Shown piece after piece: positions 35,534 through 48,567 of a DNA stretch of 64,000 nt (positions within the stretch are counted from its first letter, which is position 1; each line of letters begins with the position of its first letter). A program made the translations under genes and the position numbers. The notes below the pieces were generated by a model, which did no database searches, was not told where the DNA came from, and saw only the letters and a list, made by a program, of their open reading frames with translations. The DNA comes from Escherichia coli (GTDB taxonomy: Bacteria; Pseudomonadota; Gammaproteobacteria; Enterobacterales; Enterobacteriaceae): NCBI RefSeq assembly GCF_003018235.1, contig NZ_CP027437.1. One strand, 5' to 3'.

Positions 35534-36613
35534 ATGCAGGCGATCCTGACGGTATTCCCGCAGCGTAATGCCGGGATAACACTGATGAAAACAGGTAATC
35601 TGACAGCGCGGTTCAGGGACGGGCAGAGAATAATGATAAGGGATGTTCCGTCTGTGATGGCTGGGATGCCATCAGGAGAAATTCCGTCATCAGGACAGAG
35701 GCTGGCGGAAGAGGAAGGACTGACGGCTTTCTTTGCTGACGGAAGGGTAATAAAGCGTGCTGGTGGCAGTGATGCCATGGCGCGTTGGGTGAGCAGGATT
35801 GCAGGCTGCCAGTGTGAGAATGGTGATCACGTGGAGAACATGACAACAGCGCGGACAATGCAGGGAGAGGCGCTTCGGTTATGCCATGCCTGTGATAATC
35901 ATCATTATATGAAAGGATATCGGGCGCTGGCAGATGTGGCAGCCAGAAATCGTGCAGAATGGCTGATGGATTATATCAGGATGAGTCTGGGGCTGGGGGA
36001 AGATCATCAGGTGACCATTCCTGAGTTGTTTTGCTGGGCAGTGCTGAATGATGTGGCAGATGCTGTTCCGGTTATGATCGTAAGGCGTATCAGACAATTG
36101 CCGGAAGAGGAAAAGCTGAGCGGCACGATGAAAGAAGCAGATATTAATCCCTGGCAGACATCAGCAGGCACAGTGGTGAAGAAACTGGCAGATAATGCGA
36201 AGAGCGTTAATGTGTGCAATGTGCGGGTCAGACATGCAGTACGCCAGGAAGAACACAAAGAAATGGAAAAACCGGTGCTGAAACTTGTTGCAGACAGTGA
36301 TCCGGCTGCGGGCTATATGAGGAAGCCCAGAATGCAGCGGCTGTCTCTGCCGGGTTATACCTCGTGGGTGAAGCGTCAGCGATGCTGTGGATGCGGGAAA
36401 CCTGCAGATGATCCGCATCACATCACCGGGCACGGTTTTGGTGGTGCAGGGATAAAAGCCAGTGATTTGTTTGTGATCCCGCTGTGTCGGCAATGTCATC
36501 AGGAATTACACAATGACAGCAAGGCATGGGAGGAGAAAAACGGCAGTCAGTTGCTGTGGGTGATAAGGACGCTGGACAGGGCAGCGGGCATTGGCGCTTT
36601 AGTTGGGGGGTAA
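35534..36613 (+). CDS. Hypothetical protein with C-terminal HNH-like Cys/His nuclease motif
   Basis: CCGCGKPADDPHHITGHGFGGAGIKASDLFVIPLCRQCHQELHND; translationally coupled to upstream gene. Confidence 0.55.
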   Translation: MQAILTVFPQRNAGITLMKTGNLTARFRDGQRIMIRDVPSVMAGMPSGEIPSSGQRLAEEEGLTAFFADGRVIKRAGGSDAMARWVSRIAGCQCENGDHVENMTTARTMQGEALRLCHACDNHHYMKGYRALADVAARNRAEWLMDYIRMSLGLGEDHQVTIPELFCWAVLNDVADAVPVMIVRRIRQLPEEEKLSGTMKEADINPWQTSAGTVVKKLADNAKSVNVCNVRVRHAVRQEEHKEMEKPVLKLVADSDPAAGYMRKPRMQRLSLPGYTSWVKRQRCCGCGKPADDPHHITGHGFGGAGIKASDLFVIPLCRQCHQELHNDSKAWEEKNGSQLLWVIRTLDRAAGIGALVGG

Positions 36614-36614
36614 C

Positions 36615-37319
36615 ATGACACCGCAACAGATGGTATGGGCGAGAGAGCAGGTTATTTTTGCACTGAATCCACCGGATAAACGTCAGAAGGGGCAACTGGA
36701 GGCATTTGGTGATTTTGCCAGGTCAGACACCAGGCGTTACGGGAGGCAGAGAAACAGGACACTGAACATTGATGGCCGGTGGTATTGTCAGGATGGTGAT
36801 CCGGTACATGCTGCGGCAACAGCCTGTTATGCAATACAACCGGATATGATCACCAGGGAAGCGTTCAGAACGGCACAACTGAGGAGGAGGATTTATTGTC
36901 TGGAGGATTATCATCGGGCCTGGGTGTTATTCAGTTACAGCTTGCAGAAAAAACGAATACACCATCTTCTGGTCAGTGAGTACATCTGGATGAGGATGTT
37001 CGAGCGGTTGCAGGGGAAACGGGTTACGGACAGGATGACAGGAAATCTGATTGAAATAGCGAGGATGGCTGCATGGAATGCTGCAGTGACAGCCGGTGGG
37101 ATTGTTGCAGGTAAGGTTCTGATTGCTCCTTCATGTGCGGCGCAGATTGCAGGTGTAAAACCAAACACATGGAGTCAGCATTACAAGGCTCACTGGTGTT
37201 TTATGCATGAAGTATGCGATGAACTGGATCATGAGGCGCTGGTGACCATTACAGGAATAAAAAATCACCAAAAAAACGGCGAAAAATATAAATTTGCTAA
37301 AGTGAATATTTTAAGGTAG
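36615..37319 (+). CDS. Hypothetical protein (234 aa); a late-gene antiterminator role is possible by position only
   Basis: Last long ORF before a terminator and the late region; no motif recognised with confidence. Confidence 0.4.
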   Translation: MTPQQMVWAREQVIFALNPPDKRQKGQLEAFGDFARSDTRRYGRQRNRTLNIDGRWYCQDGDPVHAAATACYAIQPDMITREAFRTAQLRRRIYCLEDYHRAWVLFSYSLQKKRIHHLLVSEYIWMRMFERLQGKRVTDRMTGNLIEIARMAAWNAAVTAGGIVAGKVLIAPSCAAQIAGVKPNTWSQHYKAHWCFMHEVCDELDHEALVTITGIKNHQKNGEKYKFAKVNILR

Positions 37320-37862: not shown

Positions 37863-38930
37863 ATGACGCATGTTGTAAAAATATCAGAAAGTGAACTGGT
37901 CAATGCTGACTGCCTGGAATTTATACACACGTTGCCAGATGACAGTATTGACCTGATCGTTACCGATCCACCGTACTTTAAAGTGAAACCCAATGGCTGG
38001 GATAACCAGTGGAAGGGTGATGAAGATTACCTGAAGTGGCTGGATCAGTGTCTTGCGCAGTTCTGGCGGGTGCTGAAACCTGCCGGAAGTCTTTACCTGT
38101 TCTGTGGCCATCGCCTGGCATCTGACATCGAAATCATGATGCGTGAACGCTTTAATGTGCTGAACCATATTATCTGGGCGAAGCCGTCCGGACGCTGGAA
38201 CGGATGCAACAAGGAAAGCCTGAGGGCGTATTTCCCGGCCACAGAGCGCATTCTGTTCGCGGAACACTATCTGGAGCCGTATCGCCCGAAAGATGATGGT
38301 TATGAGGCGAAGGGCAGGGCACTGAAACAGCATGTGATGGCACCGCTGATTTCTTACTTTCGTGATGCGCGTGCCGCCCTTGGGATAACGGCAAAACAGA
38401 TTGCTGATGTCACAGGAAAGAAAAACATGGTGTCGCACTGGTTCAGTGCCAGTCAGTGGCAGCTGCCGAACGAAAGCGATTATCTGAAATTACAGGCGCT
38501 GTTTGCCCGGGTGGCAGAAGAGAAGCATCAGCGCGGAGAACTGGAAAAGCCACACCACCAGCTGGTGGTAACGTATACCTCACTGAACCGGCAGTATGCG
38601 GAGTTGCTGAGTGAATACAAAAATCTGCGCCGGTATTTTGGCGTGACGGCGCGGGTCCCGTACACCGATGTGTGGACGCACAAGCCGGTCCAGTTTTACC
38701 CGGGTAAACACCCCTGTGAAAAACCGGCGGAGATGCTGCGGCAGATAATTTGTGCGAGCAGCCGTCCTGGTGACATGGTGGCGGATTTCTTTATGGGGTC
38801 GGGCTCAACCATAAAAGCCGCTATGGCGCTGGGGCGTCGTGCAATTGGTGTTGAACTGGAAGAGGAACGTTTTGCGCAGACCGTGAAAGAGATTAGTCAT
38901 ATCCTGACAGGCTCAATTGATGACGGATAA
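37863..38930 (+). CDS. DNA methyltransferase, beta-class N6-adenine/N4-cytosine
   Basis: Motif IV DPPY (IVTDPPYF) precedes motif I FMGSGST; 355 aa. Confidence 0.85.
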   Translation: MTHVVKISESELVNADCLEFIHTLPDDSIDLIVTDPPYFKVKPNGWDNQWKGDEDYLKWLDQCLAQFWRVLKPAGSLYLFCGHRLASDIEIMMRERFNVLNHIIWAKPSGRWNGCNKESLRAYFPATERILFAEHYLEPYRPKDDGYEAKGRALKQHVMAPLISYFRDARAALGITAKQIADVTGKKNMVSHWFSASQWQLPNESDYLKLQALFARVAEEKHQRGELEKPHHQLVVTYTSLNRQYAELLSEYKNLRRYFGVTARVPYTDVWTHKPVQFYPGKHPCEKPAEMLRQIICASSRPGDMVADFFMGSGSTIKAAMALGRRAIGVELEEERFAQTVKEISHILTGSIDDG

Positions 38931-39768: not shown

Positions 39769-40321
39769 TATTTTTAGTATTTAGCCAGAGTGGCCCAAAC
39801 AGAAAATAAAGTTACTGTGAAACAGGGGGGCCTAATAAAAATAATCACCACTAAATTCGGGGCTTTAAAAATGCTAAGAACATCACATTTCATTATGCCG
39901 GGTACTGGAGAATAACATGATGTTTTGTTAAAAATGATTTTGCATGGTGAATCCCCCTGTGCGGCGGGGCATAATGACAGATGTTTGGTTGCGTATTGTA
40001 TAGGCAAGTTGCGGATTCTGTCTGGTCATTGCAGAATTCACCGGGAGGCACCCGGCACCATGCAGATAATTGTTTTGTGGATGATAATACCAGCCCCTCT
40101 CCGGAGGGGCTTTCTTATGGGCGAAAAAAAGCCCGGGGAGCCGGGCAATAGCATGAGATATACGTTTTTATAGACGTACAGATTTTAATCAGAATTTATG
40201 GGGCTGCGCAACTGCGTGGCCTTTTTTGTTTTGTGGGCTAAGGTTTTCCCCTTTGATTCGCCATGTGGCTGAACCTGTAGCCCGCCACTGTTCAGACGCA
40301 ATCCCGGCAAGGGGAGGAATA

Positions 40322-42349
40322 ATGGCATTTAAACACTACGATCTGGTCTCTGCCAGCAGCGGTGATGAACTGCAAAAGAAACTGACAGAAAAAATAAATG
40401 AAGGGTGGCAGCCATACGGTTCGCCGCTTGTTTCGTATGACGATAACGGGATGAAAATTATTCAGGCCATTGCAGCAGAGGGTGATGTCAGGATCCCGGT
40501 TGAAACGCCTGATGATGGTGGTGATTCACCGGTCACAATGACCTCCGGTGCACCTGATTATTATTATGTTGTTGTGCTTGCCGGACAGTCCAACGGCATG
40601 GCCTACGGTGAGGGGCTTCCGTTACCGGACTCTTATGACCGCCCGGACCCGCGCATTAAACAGCTGGCACGCCGCAGTACAGTGACGCCGGGTGGGGACG
40701 CCTGTGCATACAATGATGTGATTCCGGCTGACCATTGTCTGCATGATGTACAGGATATGAGCGGTGTTAATCATCCGAAAGCGGACCTGAATAAGGGGCA
40801 GTATGGCTGTGTCAGTCAGGGGCTGCATATTGCCAAAAAACTGCTGTCGTATATCCCGCAGAATGCAGGGATACTTCTGGTGCCCTGCTGCCGTGGTGGT
40901 TCTGCATTCACCACCGGGGCTGACGGCACATTCAGTGAGGTCACCGGCGCATCCGCTGACGCTGCACGCTGGGGTGCCGGTAAACCCCTGTATCAGGACA
41001 TGGTCAGCCGGACAAAAGCGGCGCTGGCCAAGAACCCGAAAAACAGGCTGCTGGCGGTGGTATGGATGCAGGGCGAGGCAGACCTTGCGTCAGGCAGTCA
41101 GCAGCATAACGGGTTATTCACGGCCATGGTTCAGCAGTTCCGGACTGACCTGTCCTCACTTGCTGCGCAGTGCGTGAGTGGCAATGCTGCCACGGTGCCG
41201 TGGATTTGTGGTGATACCACGTATTACTGGAAGGCCACTTATGGCACACAGTATGAAGCCATTTATGGAGCCTATAAGAATCTGTCCGCACAGAATATTT
41301 TCTTTGTACCGTTCCTGACAGATGAAAACGGCGCAAACACGCCAACGAACCAGCCAGCGGAAGACCCGGATATTGTGGCTGTGGGGTATTACGGTGCGGC
41401 ATCACGAACACAGGCGAACTGGACGACAGCGCAACGTGACAGCCATTTCAGCACCTGGGCGCGTCGCGGCATCATTTCTGACCGCCTTGCGTCAGCTATT
41501 CTGGTGCACGCGGGACGTACGTCAGGTTTCATTACCGGTGAAGTTTCTTCTCCGGACACTGCATCCGGTGACGGTGGTTCGTCCACTGATGCGGGTACGG
41601 ATGCGGGGACCGGCACTTCCGGAACAGGAAGTGATGACGCTACCGGAACGACACCAGCCACCGCTGCCATTATTCTGAGTGCAGACGGAGGGGATGTTTC
41701 GGCACAGGGCTGGACGGTGGAAGGCACCACGGTGACCACCACGGCAAACACGGTGACTTCATCGGGTGAGGCGCTGGCGCAGAATGTGCTGAGTGTTCCG
41801 AAACAGAGCGGGGCAGCATGGAAGCTTGTTCATACCACCACAGATGAGCCAGCGGAACTGCTGAACAATGGCGGTGAGTTCCTGTGTCGTTTCCGTATCA
41901 CGGATACTGCCATTGCTGAGGGGCGTTATGCCTTTGGTCTTTACTGGCTTCCGGACGCACAGAAGATACCAGCCGGTGCGACATTCAATAAAACAGGAAG
42001 CGGGATGTCCCCGTCCATGCTCAACTTCTATGTCCAGACGGATGGCAGCAACATAAACCTGTTATCACACTGCAGTACGAAGAGTGCAGGGAATCTGAAG
42101 ATTGGCTCATTCGGTGCATTTAACAATGAATGGCATACCTTCCGTCTTCGCTACCATGGTGGCAATACGGCAAGAGCAACGGTGACGCTGGACAGTCAGG
42201 TGGTGGGAGATATAACGCTGTTATGTGCGCCGTCAGCGGCCAGTGCCGGTGACACTCTGTCGATGATAAGTATCACATCGGGTGATACATACAGTATTGA
42301 AGTGGAAAGCCTGAGTGTGACGGTGAACGGGGCTGCGGCAGCGGCGTGA
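40322..42349 (+). CDS. Prophage-type sialate O-acetylesterase-like protein (nanS-p-like)
   Basis: GGGGAGG SD; N-terminal MAFKHYDLV... domain then VVLAGQSNGMAYGEG esterase-like segment; located between tRNAs and holin as in Stx-type lambdoid prophages (recollection). Confidence 0.55.
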   Translation: MAFKHYDLVSASSGDELQKKLTEKINEGWQPYGSPLVSYDDNGMKIIQAIAAEGDVRIPVETPDDGGDSPVTMTSGAPDYYYVVVLAGQSNGMAYGEGLPLPDSYDRPDPRIKQLARRSTVTPGGDACAYNDVIPADHCLHDVQDMSGVNHPKADLNKGQYGCVSQGLHIAKKLLSYIPQNAGILLVPCCRGGSAFTTGADGTFSEVTGASADAARWGAGKPLYQDMVSRTKAALAKNPKNRLLAVVWMQGEADLASGSQQHNGLFTAMVQQFRTDLSSLAAQCVSGNAATVPWICGDTTYYWKATYGTQYEAIYGAYKNLSAQNIFFVPFLTDENGANTPTNQPAEDPDIVAVGYYGAASRTQANWTTAQRDSHFSTWARRGIISDRLASAILVHAGRTSGFITGEVSSPDTASGDGGSSTDAGTDAGTGTSGTGSDDATGTTPATAAIILSADGGDVSAQGWTVEGTTVTTTANTVTSSGEALAQNVLSVPKQSGAAWKLVHTTTDEPAELLNNGGEFLCRFRITDTAIAEGRYAFGLYWLPDAQKIPAGATFNKTGSGMSPSMLNFYVQTDGSNINLLSHCSTKSAGNLKIGSFGAFNNEWHTFRLRYHGGNTARATVTLDSQVVGDITLLCAPSAASAGDTLSMISITSGDTYSIEVESLSVTVNGAAAAA

Positions 42350-42689
42350 GGATAAAAAAAGCTGCCGTGGAAAGTGTCCTGAACCGGCAGCAAGGTCAAA
42401 TGATGGATATACCAATAAGGTTTAATAGGCGCAGATATTTCTAACCGGAAGGCACTTAACGGTCAATAATGGAGGTTGGTAATGACATTTATACAACTGA
42501 TACTGCTATATTTCTGCACGGTGGTCTGTGCGTTATATCTGGTGAGCGGTGGCTATAAAGCCATCAGAAATTATGTCCGCCGAAAAATTGATGATGCAGC
42601 GGCTGAGAAGCTCAGCAGAACAACACAGGCTGCCTCATCCCCGAACGAACCAACCCTTCCACAGTAACGTCTCTCAGCGGGAAAATACC

Positions 42690-43025
42690 ATGACAGAACT
42701 GAACAAACTGGTCACTGCAGATGCAGTGAAGGCCGCACTGCGCTCTGAAGAAGTGCGGGGAAAACTGAAGGAAACCATCCGCAAAACGTTTGAGGCACAG
42801 ATTGATGCGGATGTGGAAGCGGTGCTGGATGAGCTTATCGGGCCTGCGGAAGCTCAGCCGGGAGCACCGGCCGGAGAGGATGCGCAGGCGGATGACACGT
42901 CAGCGGAAAACGGTGCGGCACAACCGGAACCTGAATCAGGAACCGAAGCTCAACCGGACGCTGCTTCCGGAACAGGAACGCAACCGGAGGGTACCCCGGA
43001 GCCGGAACCGGCGACGTTGCTGTAA
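42690..43025 (+). CDS. Hypothetical acidic protein
   Basis: [32 protein letters not shown]...; Ala/Glu/Pro-rich tail. Confidence 0.4.
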
Positions 43026-43102: not shown

Positions 43103-43318
43103 ATGTACCAGATGGAAAAAATCACAACAGGGGTGTCATACACCACGTCAGCGGCGGGAACGGGATACTGGTTACTGCAGCTGCTGGACAGGGTCTCCCC
43201 GTCCCAGTGGGCGGCGATAGGCGTGCTGGGGAGTCTGCTGTTTGGTCTGCTGACGTACCTGACGAACCTGTATTTTAAAATCAGAGAGGACCGTCGTAAG
43301 GCGGCGCGGGGAGAATAA
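43103..43318 (+). CDS. S: Holin, phage-21 S-type (pinholin-like), dual-start motif
   Basis: [71 protein letters not shown]; two TM segments; Met1 and Met4 starts. Confidence 0.85.
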
Positions 43319-43321
43319 ATA

Positions 43322-43953
43322 ATGAACCATGAAGAAATGAATCAGCGCTTCAGTCGCCTGGAAAATGAAATTGCCGGACTGAATAAAAAACTGTCGGCGC
43401 TGGTGACTTCTGAAGATGAAAAAAAAAACGCCGCGATGAACAGGAGGCGGCGTTTTATGATTATTGCATCAAAGTTGCCCGCAGGACCTTTGCGAATTTT
43501 TTGCAGGAAAAGCTATCACCGACCACATCGTCAGAAAAGTACTCCATTACGGTTGAAAGTGCCGGAGAGGAAGGCAATAAACGTTATTTTATTGCGTCTG
43601 CACCGGATAAAGACGAGGAACCCCGTCGGCCTTTCAGGGTTTCCTATGAAGAGGGGGAGTTCGTCGTTTATGAGAACGGAAAACCTGTCCGGGCATCGCA
43701 TCATCACTGCCTGAAAATTATTGATCTCGCTATTGGATGCCTGAAAGACGAAAACACCAGGGTTATGAAACGCATTGGCCGTTGCATGGGGTATCTGCAG
43801 GTGGCGGCAGAGATTGAAGCACTTGACAGTGGTGCTGACAGGGATACAGCGGTGCGGGAGTTCCTTCTTCGTGATTTCAATACCACGCCCTTTAAAAAAG
43901 TGCCTTATGACTGGATCCAGCCGGGCCTGACTTATCTCAAAGGGCGTATATGA
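43322..43953 (+). CDS. Hypothetical protein interrupted by a frameshift at an A10 tract (43419-43428)
   Basis: Frame 2 (43322-) and frame 1 (-43953) both look coding and would fuse into one ~210-aa protein with one extra A; starts 4 nt after the holin stop. Confidence 0.4.
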
Positions 43954-43995
43954 GTTGGCATGTTATCTGTGGCCGATAAATCCTGATAAATATCC

Positions 43996-44529
43996 ATGAA
44001 CGCAAAAATCAGATACGGCCTGTCGGCTGCCGTTCTGGCGCTGATTGCCGCAGGGGCTTCTGCGCCAGAAATCCTTGACCAGTTTCTGAATGAAAAAGAA
44101 GGTAATCACACCACGGCATACCGTGATGGTGCGGGTATCTGGACCATCTGCCGTGGTGCCATTCTGGTGGACGGTAAGCCTGTTGTTCCCGGCATGAAGT
44201 TGTCGAGGGAAAAATGCGACCAGGTTAACGCCATCGAACGTGACAGGGCGCTGGCATGGGTGGAGAAAAACATCAAAGTGCCGCTGACCGAACCGCAGAA
44301 AGCGGGGATTGCGTCATTCTGCCCGTACAACATCGGTCCTTCGAAATGCTTCACCTCAACGTTTTACCGGAGACTGAACGCCGGAGACCGTAAGGGGGCA
44401 TGTGCTGAAATCCGTCGGTGGATATATGACGGTGGCAGGGACTGCCGTATCCGCTCAAACAACTGCTACGGTCAGGTATCCCGGCGTGACCAGGAGAGTG
44501 CGCTGGCGTGCTGGGGTATCGACAGATAA
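43996..44529 (+). CDS. R: SAR endolysin (T4-lysozyme-like muramidase)
   Basis: Gly/Ala-rich N-terminal SAR segment GLSAAVLALIAAGASA; catalytic E-x8-D-x5-T (EGNHTTAYRDGAGIWT). Confidence 0.9.
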   Translation: MNAKIRYGLSAAVLALIAAGASAPEILDQFLNEKEGNHTTAYRDGAGIWTICRGAILVDGKPVVPGMKLSREKCDQVNAIERDRALAWVEKNIKVPLTEPQKAGIASFCPYNIGPSKCFTSTFYRRLNAGDRKGACAEIRRWIYDGGRDCRIRSNNCYGQVSRRDQESALACWGIDR

Positions 44530-44864
44530 GCAGAATATTTTGCTGAAAAATGAGATTTTCCCACGCGTCCGGAAAACACAAAATCCTTCATAAAGGTATT
44601 TCAGTAGTGAATAAAAGTAAAAACCCCGATTGCGCTAACAGTCGGGGTTTTGTGTTTCTGACCTTGAATAAGGCAAGGGAGAAATTATCAGGTAGGGAGG
44701 TGCTTTCCCTGTGAGGAAGTATAAAAGATTCTTTCTGAGGTTGTCCATTATGAAAGGCATTGAAGTGGAGACGCCAGCCAGTCTGGATTTAACAAGAGCA
44801 GCAGCCTTTGCCATTCGTATTGTGGCAATTGCCATACTGGTCTGGGCAATCCGCTGGTGGTGAT

Positions 44865-45332
44865 ATGAACCGTGTTCTGTATGTGTTGATTATTGTCCTG
44901 CTGGTGGCCTGCGGTGCGCTGTGGCTGGCAACAGACCATTACCGCGATAATGCCATCACTTACAAAGCGCAGCGCGATAAAAAAGTCAGAGAACTGAAGC
45001 TGGCTGACGCCACCATTACTGACATGCAGCAGCGCCAGCGTGATGTTGCTGCACTCGATGCAAAATACACAAAGGAGTTAGCCGATGCGAGAGCTGAAAA
45101 TGAAACTCTGCGCGCTGATGTTGCTGCTGGTCGTAAGCGCCTGCGTGTCAACGCCACCTGTGTGTCCGCCACAGACAAAGCCACCGGCACCGCCCGCGTG
45201 GGTAATGCTGCCCGCCCCAGACTGGCAGACGCCGCTCAACGGTATTATTTCACCCTCAGAGAGCGGCTGATGACGATGCAGAAGCAACTGGAAGGGGCAC
45301 AGGAATATATCAGGACGCAATGCGTGAAATAG
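44865..45332 (+). CDS. Rz: i-spanin Rz
   Basis: N-terminal TM then coiled coil; close to lambda Rz as I recall ([16 protein letters not shown]..). Confidence 0.85.
45085..45270 (+). CDS. Rz1: o-spanin Rz1 lipoprotein, embedded in Rz in another frame
   Basis: AAGGAG SD; lipobox LLLVVSAC; Pro-rich; ends ...[10 protein letters not shown] like lambda Rz1. Confidence 0.85.
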
Positions 45333-45785: not shown

Positions 45786-45970
45786 AAAGGCGCATTTTTG
45801 TGATTTTATCGTCATCATCATCATGTGTTTAACGTATTGATTTTAAGTGAATTCATCCTGAAAAGATGATGATTGTGGTTAATTTTTGTTCGACATCTTT
45901 GTGTGGCGCTGTTTCTTTACAAAAAAAACAGAGTCACTTCTGTTTTGCGGTATTTGTGGAGGAGGAATAA

Positions 45971-46447
45971 ATGGACGGCGAGCTGAAAAATATGAAGTTC
46001 AATATTAATCAACTGGCATTCCTTTCAGGCCTGCACCGGCAGACTGTTGCCGCCAGAATGGCGGATGTTCCTCTTGCGCCAGGCAGTAATGAAAAGAAAA
46101 AACTTTATCTCCTGACGGATTTGATTAGTTCGTTACTGGAAAAACCACCCTCTTCCGAAGATGAGGAGATGGATCCACACGATCGCAAGGCATGGTATCA
46201 GTCCGAGCGCGAGCGCCTTAAATTTCAGCATGAAACTGTTCAGCTTGTGCCCGTCAGTGATGTCAGGCGGTCGTTTTCCGTCGTGGTGAAAGCCATTGTG
46301 CAGATACTGGAAACCTGGCCTGACAGGCTGGAAAGGGACAGGGGGTGGACTGCATCACAACTGAACGAAGTGCAGATCGTTGTTGATGAGATCCGTGACA
46401 CGCTGGAAAAGGCAGTGATTGCCTGCTGTGATGAGGCCGATATGTGA
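45971..46447 (+). CDS. Terminase small subunit (Nu1-like, N-terminal wHTH)
   Basis: GGAGGAGG SD; MKFNINQLAFLSGLHRQTVAARM resembles the lambda Nu1 N-terminus; precedes large terminase. Confidence 0.7.
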   Translation: MDGELKNMKFNINQLAFLSGLHRQTVAARMADVPLAPGSNEKKKLYLLTDLISSLLEKPPSSEDEEMDPHDRKAWYQSERERLKFQHETVQLVPVSDVRRSFSVVVKAIVQILETWPDRLERDRGWTASQLNEVQIVVDEIRDTLEKAVIACCDEADM

Positions 46448-48567
46448 ATCAGGTGAACGAGAGCCACAGCCGCGCATCAGATATCTGGCGCGAAGTGGCC
46501 TCACTGTTTCGCCCACCAGGCCGGTTACCTGTGGCGGAAGCCATCAGGCGTTACATGCGGGTACCACGGGGAGCCAATACTTCCGGTCCGTGGGAGTCAT
46601 CGCTGACGCCCTACATGATTGACCCCATTAATACATTATCAGCCCGTGAATATGACGCGGTGGTGTTTGTGGGACCGGCGCGAACCGGGAAAACCGAAGG
46701 GCTGATTGATGGCTGGATTGTGTATGGCATTATCTGCGATCCGGCGGATATGCTGGTGGTGCAGATGACCGAAACAAAGGCGCGGGAGCATTCCAGAACG
46801 CGTCTTTCCAGGACATTTCGTCACAGTCCGGAGGTCAGTAAACGCCTCAGCCCTTCCCGTAATGACAACAACGTCCACGATAAAATGTTTCTTGACGGCT
46901 CCTTTCTGAAAATTGGCTGGCCGTCGATCACCGTATTTTCCTCCTCAGATTACCGCCGGGTGGCGCTGACGGACTATGACCGTTTTCCTGAGAACGTCGA
47001 CGGTGAAGGGGATGCCTTCACGCTGGCATCAAAGCGTACCACCACCTTTATGTCCTCAGGGATGACCCTGGTCGAAAGTTCACCCGGGCGGGATATCACC
47101 GACACCAAATGGCGATGTGGTGGTGCACATGAGGCTCCGCCAACAACGGGGATCCTGTCGCTGTATAACCGGGGAGACCGCCGCCGGTGGTACTGGCCGT
47201 GTCCGCACTGCGGGGAATATTTTCAGCCGGTGATGGATAACATGACCGGTTACCGTAATAACCCAGATTTTGTGGCTGCGGGTCAGGCTGCCCGTCTGAT
47301 GTGTCCGCACTGTCGCGGGCTGATTGCTCCGGAACAGAAACGCGAACTGAATAACAGGGGGATCTGGCTGCGGGAAGGTGAACGGGCGGCGGCGGACGGC
47401 AGCATCACCGGAACGCCACGAAATTCCAGGATTGCGTCATTCTGGATGGAGGGTCCGGCTGCGGCGTTTCAGACCTGGGAACAACTGATTTTTAAGCTGC
47501 TGGCGGCAGAAGAAGAGTATGAGCGAACCGGCAGTGAAGAGACCCTGAAAGCGGTGGTGAATACCGATATCGGACGGCCTTATCTGCCCCGTTCAGCCAC
47601 GGAACAGCGTAAAAGTGAACTGCTTGAACAGCGTGCTGAGCCGGTTCCCCGGCGGTGTGTGCCGGATGGGGTGCGCTTCATTGAGGCAACGGTTGACGTA
47701 CAGGGCGGTAAAAACCGCCGGTTTGTGGTGCAGATCACCGGATATGGAGAGCAGGGGGAACGCTGGATTGTTGATCGCTACAACATCCGGCAATCACTGC
47801 GATGCAGTCCCGGTGGTGAGAGCCTGCCGGTTGATCCGGCGGCCTATCCGGAAGACTGGGAACTGTTGCTGACAGATGTGTTTCACAAAACCTGGCCGCT
47901 GGCGTCTGATCCGGATGTGCATATGCGGCTCATGGCGATGGCCGTGGATACGGGCGGTGAAGCCGGGGTGACGGATAACGCCTATCGTTTCTGGCGGCAG
48001 TGCCGCCGGGAAGGGCTGGGTAACCGGGTGTTTCTGTTCAAGGGGGATGGTCTTCGTCGCGACAGACTGATTAACCGGACATTCCCGGATAACACCGGCA
48101 GAAGCGCCCGCCGGGCCAGGGCGAGCGGTGACGTTGCCCTGTGGCTGGTACAGACCGATGCGTTTAAGGACCGGGTGAATAATGCGCTGTGGCGTGACAC
48201 ACCGGGGCCGAACTATATCCACTTTCCTGACTGGCTGGGACGGTGGTTTTTCGATGAGCTGACCTATGAGGAGCGCGGCAGTGACGGAAAATGGCGAAAA
48301 CCGGGCAGAGGCGCTAACGAAGCGTTTGACCTGCTGGTCTATGCGGATGCGCTTGCCGTTCTGCATGGCTACGAGAAGATACGCTGGCCGTCTGCACCGG
48401 ACTGGGCGCAGCGGGAAACATGGCTTGTCGGTCCGGAGGAGCGTTCAGGGCTGACAACATCACGGGCGCTGCCGGAAAGGAAAGAAAAACGCCGTCGCAG
48501 GCAGGAAAAACTGCGCGCAGAGCGGGCAGAGGATAATCCGTGGATAACATCAGGAGGCTGGTTGTGA
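46444..48567 (+). CDS. Terminase large subunit (lambda gpA family)
   Basis: 707 aa; Walker A-like GPARTGKT; CPHCGEYF zinc motif as in lambda A. Confidence 0.9.
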   Translation: MNQVNESHSRASDIWREVASLFRPPGRLPVAEAIRRYMRVPRGANTSGPWESSLTPYMIDPINTLSAREYDAVVFVGPARTGKTEGLIDGWIVYGIICDPADMLVVQMTETKAREHSRTRLSRTFRHSPEVSKRLSPSRNDNNVHDKMFLDGSFLKIGWPSITVFSSSDYRRVALTDYDRFPENVDGEGDAFTLASKRTTTFMSSGMTLVESSPGRDITDTKWRCGGAHEAPPTTGILSLYNRGDRRRWYWPCPHCGEYFQPVMDNMTGYRNNPDFVAAGQAARLMCPHCRGLIAPEQKRELNNRGIWLREGERAAADGSITGTPRNSRIASFWMEGPAAAFQTWEQLIFKLLAAEEEYERTGSEETLKAVVNTDIGRPYLPRSATEQRKSELLEQRAEPVPRRCVPDGVRFIEATVDVQGGKNRRFVVQITGYGEQGERWIVDRYNIRQSLRCSPGGESLPVDPAAYPEDWELLLTDVFHKTWPLASDPDVHMRLMAMAVDTGGEAGVTDNAYRFWRQCRREGLGNRVFLFKGDGLRRDRLINRTFPDNTGRSARRARASGDVALWLVQTDAFKDRVNNALWRDTPGPNYIHFPDWLGRWFFDELTYEERGSDGKWRKPGRGANEAFDLLVYADALAVLHGYEKIRWPSAPDWAQRETWLVGPEERSGLTTSRALPERKEKRRRRQEKLRAERAEDNPWITSGGWL

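Follow-up and report, generated by a model that had tools for sequence, protein, structure and literature searches.

In phage 21, the stop codon of the holin gene S overlaps the start codon of the endolysin gene R, and the two proteins form a pinholin lysis pair. The corresponding genes of a prophage in Escherichia coli contig NZ_CP027437.1 (assembly GCF_003018235.1), of which a stretch of 64,000 nucleotides (nt) was analysed (hereafter the window), stand 677 nt apart, with a disrupted open reading frame (ORF), here called X, between them. The locus raises the question of whether it is still a lysis cassette of the phage 21 type, and what the disrupted gene is doing in it. Our analysis suggests, with a high degree of confidence, that these genes make up the lysis cassette in the late operon of a lambdoid prophage that resembles the Shiga toxin (Stx) phages and lacks stx, that lysis would proceed by way of a pinholin and a signal-arrest-release (SAR) endolysin, and that X is a passenger gene put out of frame by slippage of an A8 tract to A10. 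An S21-family holin with an RrrQ-type endolysin and Rz/Rz1 spanins is an ordinary and already known lysis gene set, and the split S-gene-R arrangement is common and already present in reference annotations (the K-12 Qin prophage and Stx phages). The sole mildly new element of the locus is the hypervariability of the tract. The argument rests on the following elements.

43103..43318, plus strand: holin S, 71 residues, class II/pinholin type, P21 holin S family (PF04971)
43322..43953, plus strand: passenger ORF X, split by a +2 frameshift (from homologue alignments and the repaired translation)
43419..43428, plus strand: A10 homopolymer, the frameshift site and the only run of at least nine in the 64-kb window
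43996..44529, plus strand: endolysin R, 177 residues, GH24 (T4-lysozyme-like), RrrQ/933W-R type (PF00959)
44014..44064, plus strand: predicted SAR segment of R, residues 7-23, YGLSAAVLALIAAGASA, with K4 and R6 before it and Pro24 after it
44865..45332, plus strand: Rz i-spanin, 155 residues, with an N-terminal anchor (PF03245, E = 2.2e-49)
45085..45270, plus strand: Rz1 o-spanin lipoprotein, in the +1 frame inside Rz (PF06085, E = 1.1e-18)

Holin, endolysin and spanins

The holin matches the Pfam family 'Bacteriophage P21 holin S' (PF04971) with an E-value of 1.9e-33 over profile positions 1-63 of 64, and it aligns without gaps to S21-71 of phage 21 (OL657228), with 55 of the 71 residues identical (77%). 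A 100% identical protein is encoded at 3785-4000 of locus L003, from E. coli O158:H23, where it is annotated as a class II holin family protein. Only two hydrophobic segments are present, a third transmembrane domain (TMD) being excluded by the length of 71 residues and by the profile. TMD1 (residues 8-28) is weakly hydrophobic, with a mean Kyte-Doolittle (KD) value of 0.46 and 57% G/A/S/T, and TMD2 (36-58) has a mean KD of 1.48 and keeps G40, S44 and G48; the values for TMD1 and TMD2 of S21, 0.33 and 1.50, are almost the same. Met1 and Met4 occur in all eight of the homologues compared, the in-frame Met4 start at 43112 giving a 68-residue form, and Shine-Dalgarno-like GGAG/GGGG motifs lie 5' of the starts. 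The likeness to the phage 21 pinholin that a preliminary description of this DNA had proposed, with two transmembrane segments and a Met1/Met4 dual start, is thus borne out, the dual start as a feature of the sequence. Folding of the holin 5' region revealed no RNA structure beyond chance (z = -0.58).

The endolysin matches PF00959 (E = 3e-25), and a PHROG search agreed with the Pfam assignments of both proteins. Its closest solved structures are R21 (3hde and 3hdf; E = 1.6e-18 for 3hde) and RrrD (4zpu). When the endolysin is aligned to R21, the identity is 34% (BLASTP), which does not make it a close relative, and the two proteins differ in length (177 versus 165 residues) and in the number of cysteines (8 versus 4). 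The catalytic E35 (44098-44100), D44 and T50, spaced as E-x8-D-x5-T, nevertheless align with the identically numbered residues of R21, so that the E-D-T triad read from the window at first sight is in register with that of the phage 21 enzyme. On the larger scale, the protein is 86% identical to K-12 RrrQ and 93-95% identical to the R proteins of the Stx phages and of the O158:H23 prophage that were compared, and an identical protein was found on 24 contigs. The 177-residue endolysin of the RrrQ/933W type is very widespread in E. coli: a search with 2.4 kb of the cassette gave matches to parts of the query in 4926 of 5426 complete genomes.

The N-terminus of the endolysin, MNAKIRY-GLSAAVLALIAAGASA-P, contains the segment at residues 7-23, with 65% G/A/S/T and a mean KD of 1.71. 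The SAR segment of R21 has 63% G/A/S/T and a KD of 2.11, as compared with 21% and 2.84 for the ordinary anchor of the window Rz. By composition, the SAR-like segment named in the preliminary description is therefore present, and SAR behaviour, in which the segment stays uncleaved and is released on depolarisation, is predicted for this endolysin. Another possibility would be an ordinary cleavable Sec signal peptide, with which the endolysin would be secreted and matured and the role of the holin would differ. Its n-h-c architecture (MNAKIRY / GLSAAVLALIAA / GASA), the A-x-A motif at residues 21-23 and a hydrophobic core of just about 17 residues would suit such a peptide. However, A-S-A is the sole A-x-A motif, and Pro24 is its +1 residue; a proline at +1 blocks cleavage by signal peptidase I. 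The composition of the segment also agrees with that of the R21 SAR segment, E35, D44 and T50 are spaced from the N-terminus as in R21, and the partner holin belongs to a pinholin family that is reported to be paired with SAR endolysins, a published survey stating that the Stx phages have pinholins of the P21 family in association with such enzymes (PMC10462455). We consider cleavage of the endolysin very unlikely.

The spanin genes complete the set. Rz1 is embedded in Rz, as in phage 21, and a V-S-A-C lipobox-like motif is visible in it. The reading frames of S, R, Rz and Rz1 are all intact.

From the homology with phage 21, lysis would be expected to proceed as follows. Upon induction, Q-antiterminated late transcription would run through nanS-p, DUF1378, DUF826, S, X, R, the small ORF and Rz/Rz1. 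The 71- and 68-residue forms of S would accumulate in the inner membrane, where the weakly hydrophobic TMD1 would exit the bilayer and TMD2, by its G40-S44-G48 face, would oligomerise into small pinholes and collapse the proton-motive force. The endolysin, exported by Sec, would until then be tethered to the membrane in an inactive state by an N-terminal segment rich in Gly, Ala and Ser; depolarisation would release it to refold and cleave the peptidoglycan by E35/D44/T50, and Rz/Rz1 would finally disrupt the outer membrane. X would most likely be dispensable for lysis. In this copy it is out of frame, which we attribute to strand slippage from A8 to A10; full-length X would be made as a small fraction at most, via -1 slippage on A_AAA_AAA or transcriptional slippage.

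A cassette of this kind could also lie in a decaying cryptic prophage and no longer function in lysis. The frameshift in one gene of the late operon would fit such decay, as would the fact that the K-12 prophage of the same layout, Qin, is annotated as cryptic. On the other hand, the genes S, R, Rz and Rz1 have their full length, and the sequences of S and R are identical to those in other genomes. Moreover, the cassette is followed by a 158-residue ORF (45971-46447), a 707-residue ORF (46444-48567) and, further downstream, more long ORFs; in identical sibling loci, the genes that correspond to the first two have a DUF1441 and a large-terminase GpA domain, respectively. We therefore regard a non-functional cassette as improbable.

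The passenger gene X and its poly(A) tract

The S-R spacer (43319-43995) holds one ORF, X, which starts at 43322, 3 nt past the holin stop, and ends 42 nt 5' of the R start. X takes its Shine-Dalgarno sequence, GGGGAG, from the 3' end of S and has the place that belongs to R in phage 21. In the window, X is in two fragments, 43322-43714, of which only the first ~35 codons are authentic, and 43429-43953 in the -1 frame. Deleting two A's from the tract restores a 209-residue protein ending at 43953. The X proteins of relatives are intact at 209-213 residues, and one intact copy (P0001) is 96% identical. Alignment with the 213-residue ORF of Stx2_12E129, the 209-residue ORF of CFSAN029787 and the ORF of O158:H23 revealed that the A10 of the window corresponds to 8 nt in the in-frame relatives (AAAAAAAA, AAAACAAA, CAAACAAA). 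The suggestion made from the sequence at the outset, that an unrelated, frameshifted ORF separates S from R where phage 21 has overlapping genes, thus holds, and the lesion can be placed as a +2 shift at A10.

The O158:H23 copy of X is annotated as 'frameshifted', yet its tract is A8, like that of the in-frame relatives, as judged by alignment of the untranslated copy. The PGAP label may derive from WP_001300760.1 as the reference, with the same earlier stop. This 209-residue protein (CFSAN029787, locus L004, 2504-3133) has a 1-nt deletion near the 3' end of its gene compared with other members (loci L001 and L003), which leads to the earlier stop in another frame.

Repaired X matches positions 161-296 of phrog_1085, a family of unknown function, with an E-value of 2.5e-78. 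A search of 5.8 billion proteins returned 151 homologues, whose named sources are all E. coli or Shigella, many matches being nameless; the proteins are called 'hypothetical' or, for the long forms, 'YdfR family/DUF1327'. A profile search of 1.84 billion representatives gave 43 clusters, all short or uncharacterised. The family is a mosaic. A conserved C-terminal module of ~110 residues, with 32 invariant columns in 28 sequences and the pattern …GRCMGYLQ…PFKK…W…PG…YLK, is preceded by a coiled-coil-like region and then, in the forms of 259-333 residues, by an N-terminal DUF1327 domain. X aligns with the C-terminal two thirds (~190 residues) of these long 'YdfR family' proteins and differs from them, and from phrog_1085 as a whole, in having no N-terminal DUF1327 domain: neither the ORF fragments nor the repaired 209 residues gave any Pfam match, to DUF1327 (PF07041) or otherwise, at E-values up to 1, while the long relative P0112 scores 9.1e-41 for DUF1327. 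Among nine diverged relatives of X, Pfam gave just one sub-threshold DUF1327 match.

Repaired X had no significant match in Pfam, NCBIfam or PADLOC, so there is no support for a defence function or a known regulatory function. Repaired X and the 130-residue ORF1 were both unrecorded in an exact-protein look-up, and AlphaFold2 gave an unusable model from the 28-sequence alignment (mean pLDDT 49.9, pTM 0.23). YdfR is reported to bind the catalytic half of RNase E via its residues 1-72, and it may bind RNA too (PMC13232886); these residues sit in the N-terminal part, which X does not have. Our literature search found no paper connecting YdfR or DUF1327 with a holin or an endolysin. A diverged relative of X is located between Q and a holin of the Phage_holin_2_3 family in another prophage, so the X family appears to be tied to the lambdoid late operon and not to the pinholin. 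Our best guess from these comparisons is that X is most likely a dispensable late-operon passenger, or 'moron'.

The variety of the S-R junction in related cassettes is consistent with a passenger. One or two ORFs stand between S and R in Stx2_EH2201, vB_EcoS-783R2, Stx2_12E129, CFSAN029787, SCU-111 and O158:H23. The assembly collection has the exact 71-residue holin in 1023 indexed blocks. At the ten listed places it is followed by R, by a 213-residue X homologue, by a DUF1327 gene and a small ORF, or by 674 nt without a called gene. Since the identical holin is accompanied by differing inserts or none, the junction is a variable slot for passenger genes. The K-12 Qin prophage has the order essQ (71 residues)-ydfR-rrrQ (177 residues)-rzpQ/rzoQ, like that of the window; the window holin is 79% identical to EssQ, and the spanins follow the lysozyme in both. 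However, the insert in Qin is ydfR, a DUF1327 gene of 103 residues whose stop overlaps the rrrQ start, whereas the insert in the window has no DUF1327 domain and leaves a gap before R. Phage 933W shares with the window the upstream SASA esterase nanS-p and small ORFs, a 216-nt S and a 534-nt R. Its order is S-R-ant-Rz/Rz1, with a gap of 4 nt between S and R where the window has X.

The tract itself proved to be polymorphic among E. coli assemblies, with lengths of A7, A8, A9 and A10, of which A8 alone is in frame. Eight loci were fetched from the 24-contig set, and the tract was examined in L003, L008-L017 and L022-L027. Four of the eight fetched loci (L008, L009, L012 and L015) match the window without a single substitution along 1.7-6.5 kb, and a fifth (L014) has three mismatches over 3.8 kb, none of them in the S-R spacer. 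In all five, the sole alignment gap to the window is this tract: L008 has A8 and an intact 209-residue ORF, and the other four have A9. Because copies that are otherwise identical carry A8, A9 or A10, the frameshift is placed at a hypermutable tract. A9 was also found in other backgrounds, namely L013 (74 mismatches over 4.3 kb) and one metagenome contig; A7 in at least three assemblies of a variant that is 94% identical across the S-R spacer; and A8 in L003, L010, L011 and SCU-111. The more distant relatives break up the A run while staying in frame (AAAACAAA, CAAACAAA). With L017 and L023 counted once as the same SCU-111 locus, there are 15 pure-tract copies, and 10 of these, spread over at least three backgrounds, are out of frame. 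A scan of IMG/VR for the tract gave no match, and the metagenome scan gave the one contig with A9. The most economical explanation is slippage of replication at a hot-spot, with selection being weak on a gene whose operon is silent in lysogens.

An error of sequencing or assembly, with an intact A8 gene in reality, would explain why A10 is seen in the window alone while A8 or A9 stands in sibling copies that are otherwise the same, homopolymers being a classic site of error on some platforms. However, out-of-frame lengths recur independently, A9 in five draft assemblies besides the metagenome contig and A7 in the three or more assemblies of the diverged variant, and this recurrence makes real length variation at the tract likely. 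Furthermore, a second A8 run (45921-45928), within the region shared by L008, L009 and L012, is invariant in the same 6.5 kb where the tract is the only gap. We therefore consider an artefact unlikely, although less so than the other alternatives weighed in this work. Given the hypervariability of the tract, 'frameshifted' pseudogene calls at this locus need careful reading. The site could also be of use as a naturally occurring marker for slippage, or it might conceivably act as a switch.

Possible recoding of X and points of doubt

The last of these ideas was considered together with a secondary structure that overlaps the tract.

43425..43456, plus strand: terminator-shaped hairpin in X, AAAACGCCGC(12-nt loop)GCGGCGUUUU, from RNA folding

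ORF1 of the A10 allele reads GA-A_AAA_AAA-AC in its own frame, with a slippery heptamer, A_AAA_AAA, at 43420-43426. A -1 tandem slip on this heptamer would lead into the downstream frame, open beginning at the tract, and yield a 210-residue protein; one A more or two fewer in the mRNA would be equivalent. The hairpin, composed of the final four A's of the tract, CGCCGC, a loop of 12 nt, GCGGCG and UUUU, has a predicted energy of -18.8 kcal/mol (z = -2.97), and none of 200 shuffled sequences was equally stable. The terminator scan called no intrinsic terminator in X, the loop being 12 nt long. As the stem also encodes conserved residues (RR...AA), we claim no function for the hairpin. Two relatives have C-to-T changes in it, with pairing retained as G-U.

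X could accordingly be a functional regulator of lysis or of late genes, with the tract as a phase-variable or recoding switch that tunes it, and possibly with it the timing of lysis or the expression of R. Slippage would toggle A8 against A7, A9 or A10, and transcriptional or -1 slippage would give a graded amount of the late protein. Four tract lengths on at least three backgrounds, with a majority of copies out of frame, would be expected of such a contingency site, and in the A10 allele the -1 slip enters exactly the open downstream frame, with a stable hairpin after the tract. Runs of nine or more A (A or T) are reported to be slippage-prone, with transcriptional slippage able to restore disrupted ORFs (PMC1088944). 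X also holds the Shine-Dalgarno position that belongs to R in phage 21, and R has no clear one of its own. If true, this would be a phase-variable accessory gene within a phage lysis cassette, whose product acts on host RNA metabolism or on lysis, in the latter case through its timing or the translation of the endolysin. Several observations argue otherwise. Neither phage 21 nor 933W carries X, other phages with the same holin have unrelated genes in its stead, and a relative occupies a different site of the late operon. A dispensable gene with such a hot-spot would show the same decay, as lysogens keep their late genes silent. The hairpin overlaps the tract, and its spacing is thus wrong for a classic frameshift stimulator, and the R start region has no significant structure. 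Taken together, a contingency or recoding site in a regulator of lysis is a long shot, and a programmed recoding role of A10, as judged from the sequence, is likewise very unlikely.

We therefore keep to the passenger in a pinholin/SAR cassette as the preferred reading, and several points weigh against parts of it. In S21-71, Lys2 confers antiholin character. The N-terminal extension of the window holin is M-Y-Q, without a lysine, in place of the M-K-S of S21 and EssQ, so the charge difference between the long and short forms is missing. An antiholin function of the long form is thus doubtful on this sequence, and regulation may differ from that of S21-71. The N-terminus of the endolysin resembles a Sec signal peptide as well, with A-S-A at 21-23, and our literature search found no paper testing SAR release or pinhole formation for the 177-residue endolysin type. 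The R start has no obvious Shine-Dalgarno sequence (AAATATCC-ATG), so R might need translation upstream of it in order to be expressed, and X would then be less of a bystander. Finally, the excess of out-of-frame tracts could reflect selection instead of neutral decay. We considered whether RNA structure might couple the translation of R to that of X and dropped the idea, as no structure linking the R start to X was found beyond chance (z = -0.16).

The R-Rz spacer and the prophage surroundings

The junction of R and Rz differs between related phages as well. R and Rz overlap in phage 21 and are 335 nt apart in the window, where the spacer contains two features.

44620..44651, no strand assigned: strong bidirectional terminator-like hairpin in the R-Rz spacer (terminator scan, 13 pairs)
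44750..44863, plus strand: 37-residue ORF with one hydrophobic C-terminal segment (hydropathy), its stop abutting the Rz start

In 933W, ant lies between R and Rz, whereas the window has only the hairpin, with a weak sar-like match, and the 37-residue ORF before Rz. The R/Rz junction is thus a second variable slot. The sar-like match, on the minus strand at 44616-44691, is a sub-threshold one to the P22 immI sar RNA (Rfam RF00262; 31 bits against a gathering threshold of 43; E = 1.7e-4 in a local search). Given the P22-like ant of 933W at this position, the element may be a remnant or a small antisense RNA. A sigma-70-like promoter site (44747-44718, minus strand) lies just upstream of the match. 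The 37-residue ORF is called as a gene in sibling assemblies, and the 50-residue ORF that encloses it (44711-44863) matches phrog_4493, of unknown function, with an E-value of 2.8e-24.

The window is part of an E. coli chromosome, as recN (7255-8916) is 99.4% identical to E. coli genomes. The first ~20 kb hold ssrA, smpB and neighbouring genes, and the remainder is the lambdoid prophage. The genes directly 5' of the cassette are as follows.

40226-42349: nanS-p-like esterase
42476..42667, plus strand: small DUF1378 ORF, 5' of the lysis genes (Pfam PF07125, E = 1.9e-36)
42687..43025, plus strand: DUF826 ORF, directly 5' of the holin (Pfam PF05696, E = 5.1e-19)

The order in the late region is a Q-like ORF, a methyltransferase-like ORF, tRNA-Arg, tRNA-Gly, the nanS-p-like esterase, DUF1378, DUF826, S, X, R, the small ORF and Rz/Rz1. 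Judged by eye, the 238-residue ORF at 36603-37319 reads as a putative Q-like protein, and the 355-residue ORF at 37863-38930 as a putative DNA methyltransferase. The nanS-p/DUF1378/DUF826/S block is conserved in Stx-like lambdoid phages and occurs in the same order in L001, L003 and L008. This is the layout of an Stx-phage late region (compare 933W), and the window contains no stx genes.

Between the prophage tRNAs and nanS-p, at 40000-40228, which is the position of the stx genes in Stx phages, the Rfam small RNA STnc100 matches above threshold with 81.6 bits, the match being clipped by the start of the searched region. On the minus strand of the same interval, there are sub-threshold matches to AsxR, an anti-stx2 small RNA (44.5 bits versus 63), and to AgvB. 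At the other end of the window, the tmRNA gene ssrA (4756-5118, minus strand) has a 1214-residue ORF (831-4475) past its 3' end, and the two (window 1-5118) may belong to an ssrA-associated island separate from the prophage. In the O158:H23 locus (L003; NZ_CP076709), the closest relative among complete genomes, an IS200C transposase gene (3184-3642) separates DUF826 from the holin, a further sign that this neighbourhood tolerates insertions.

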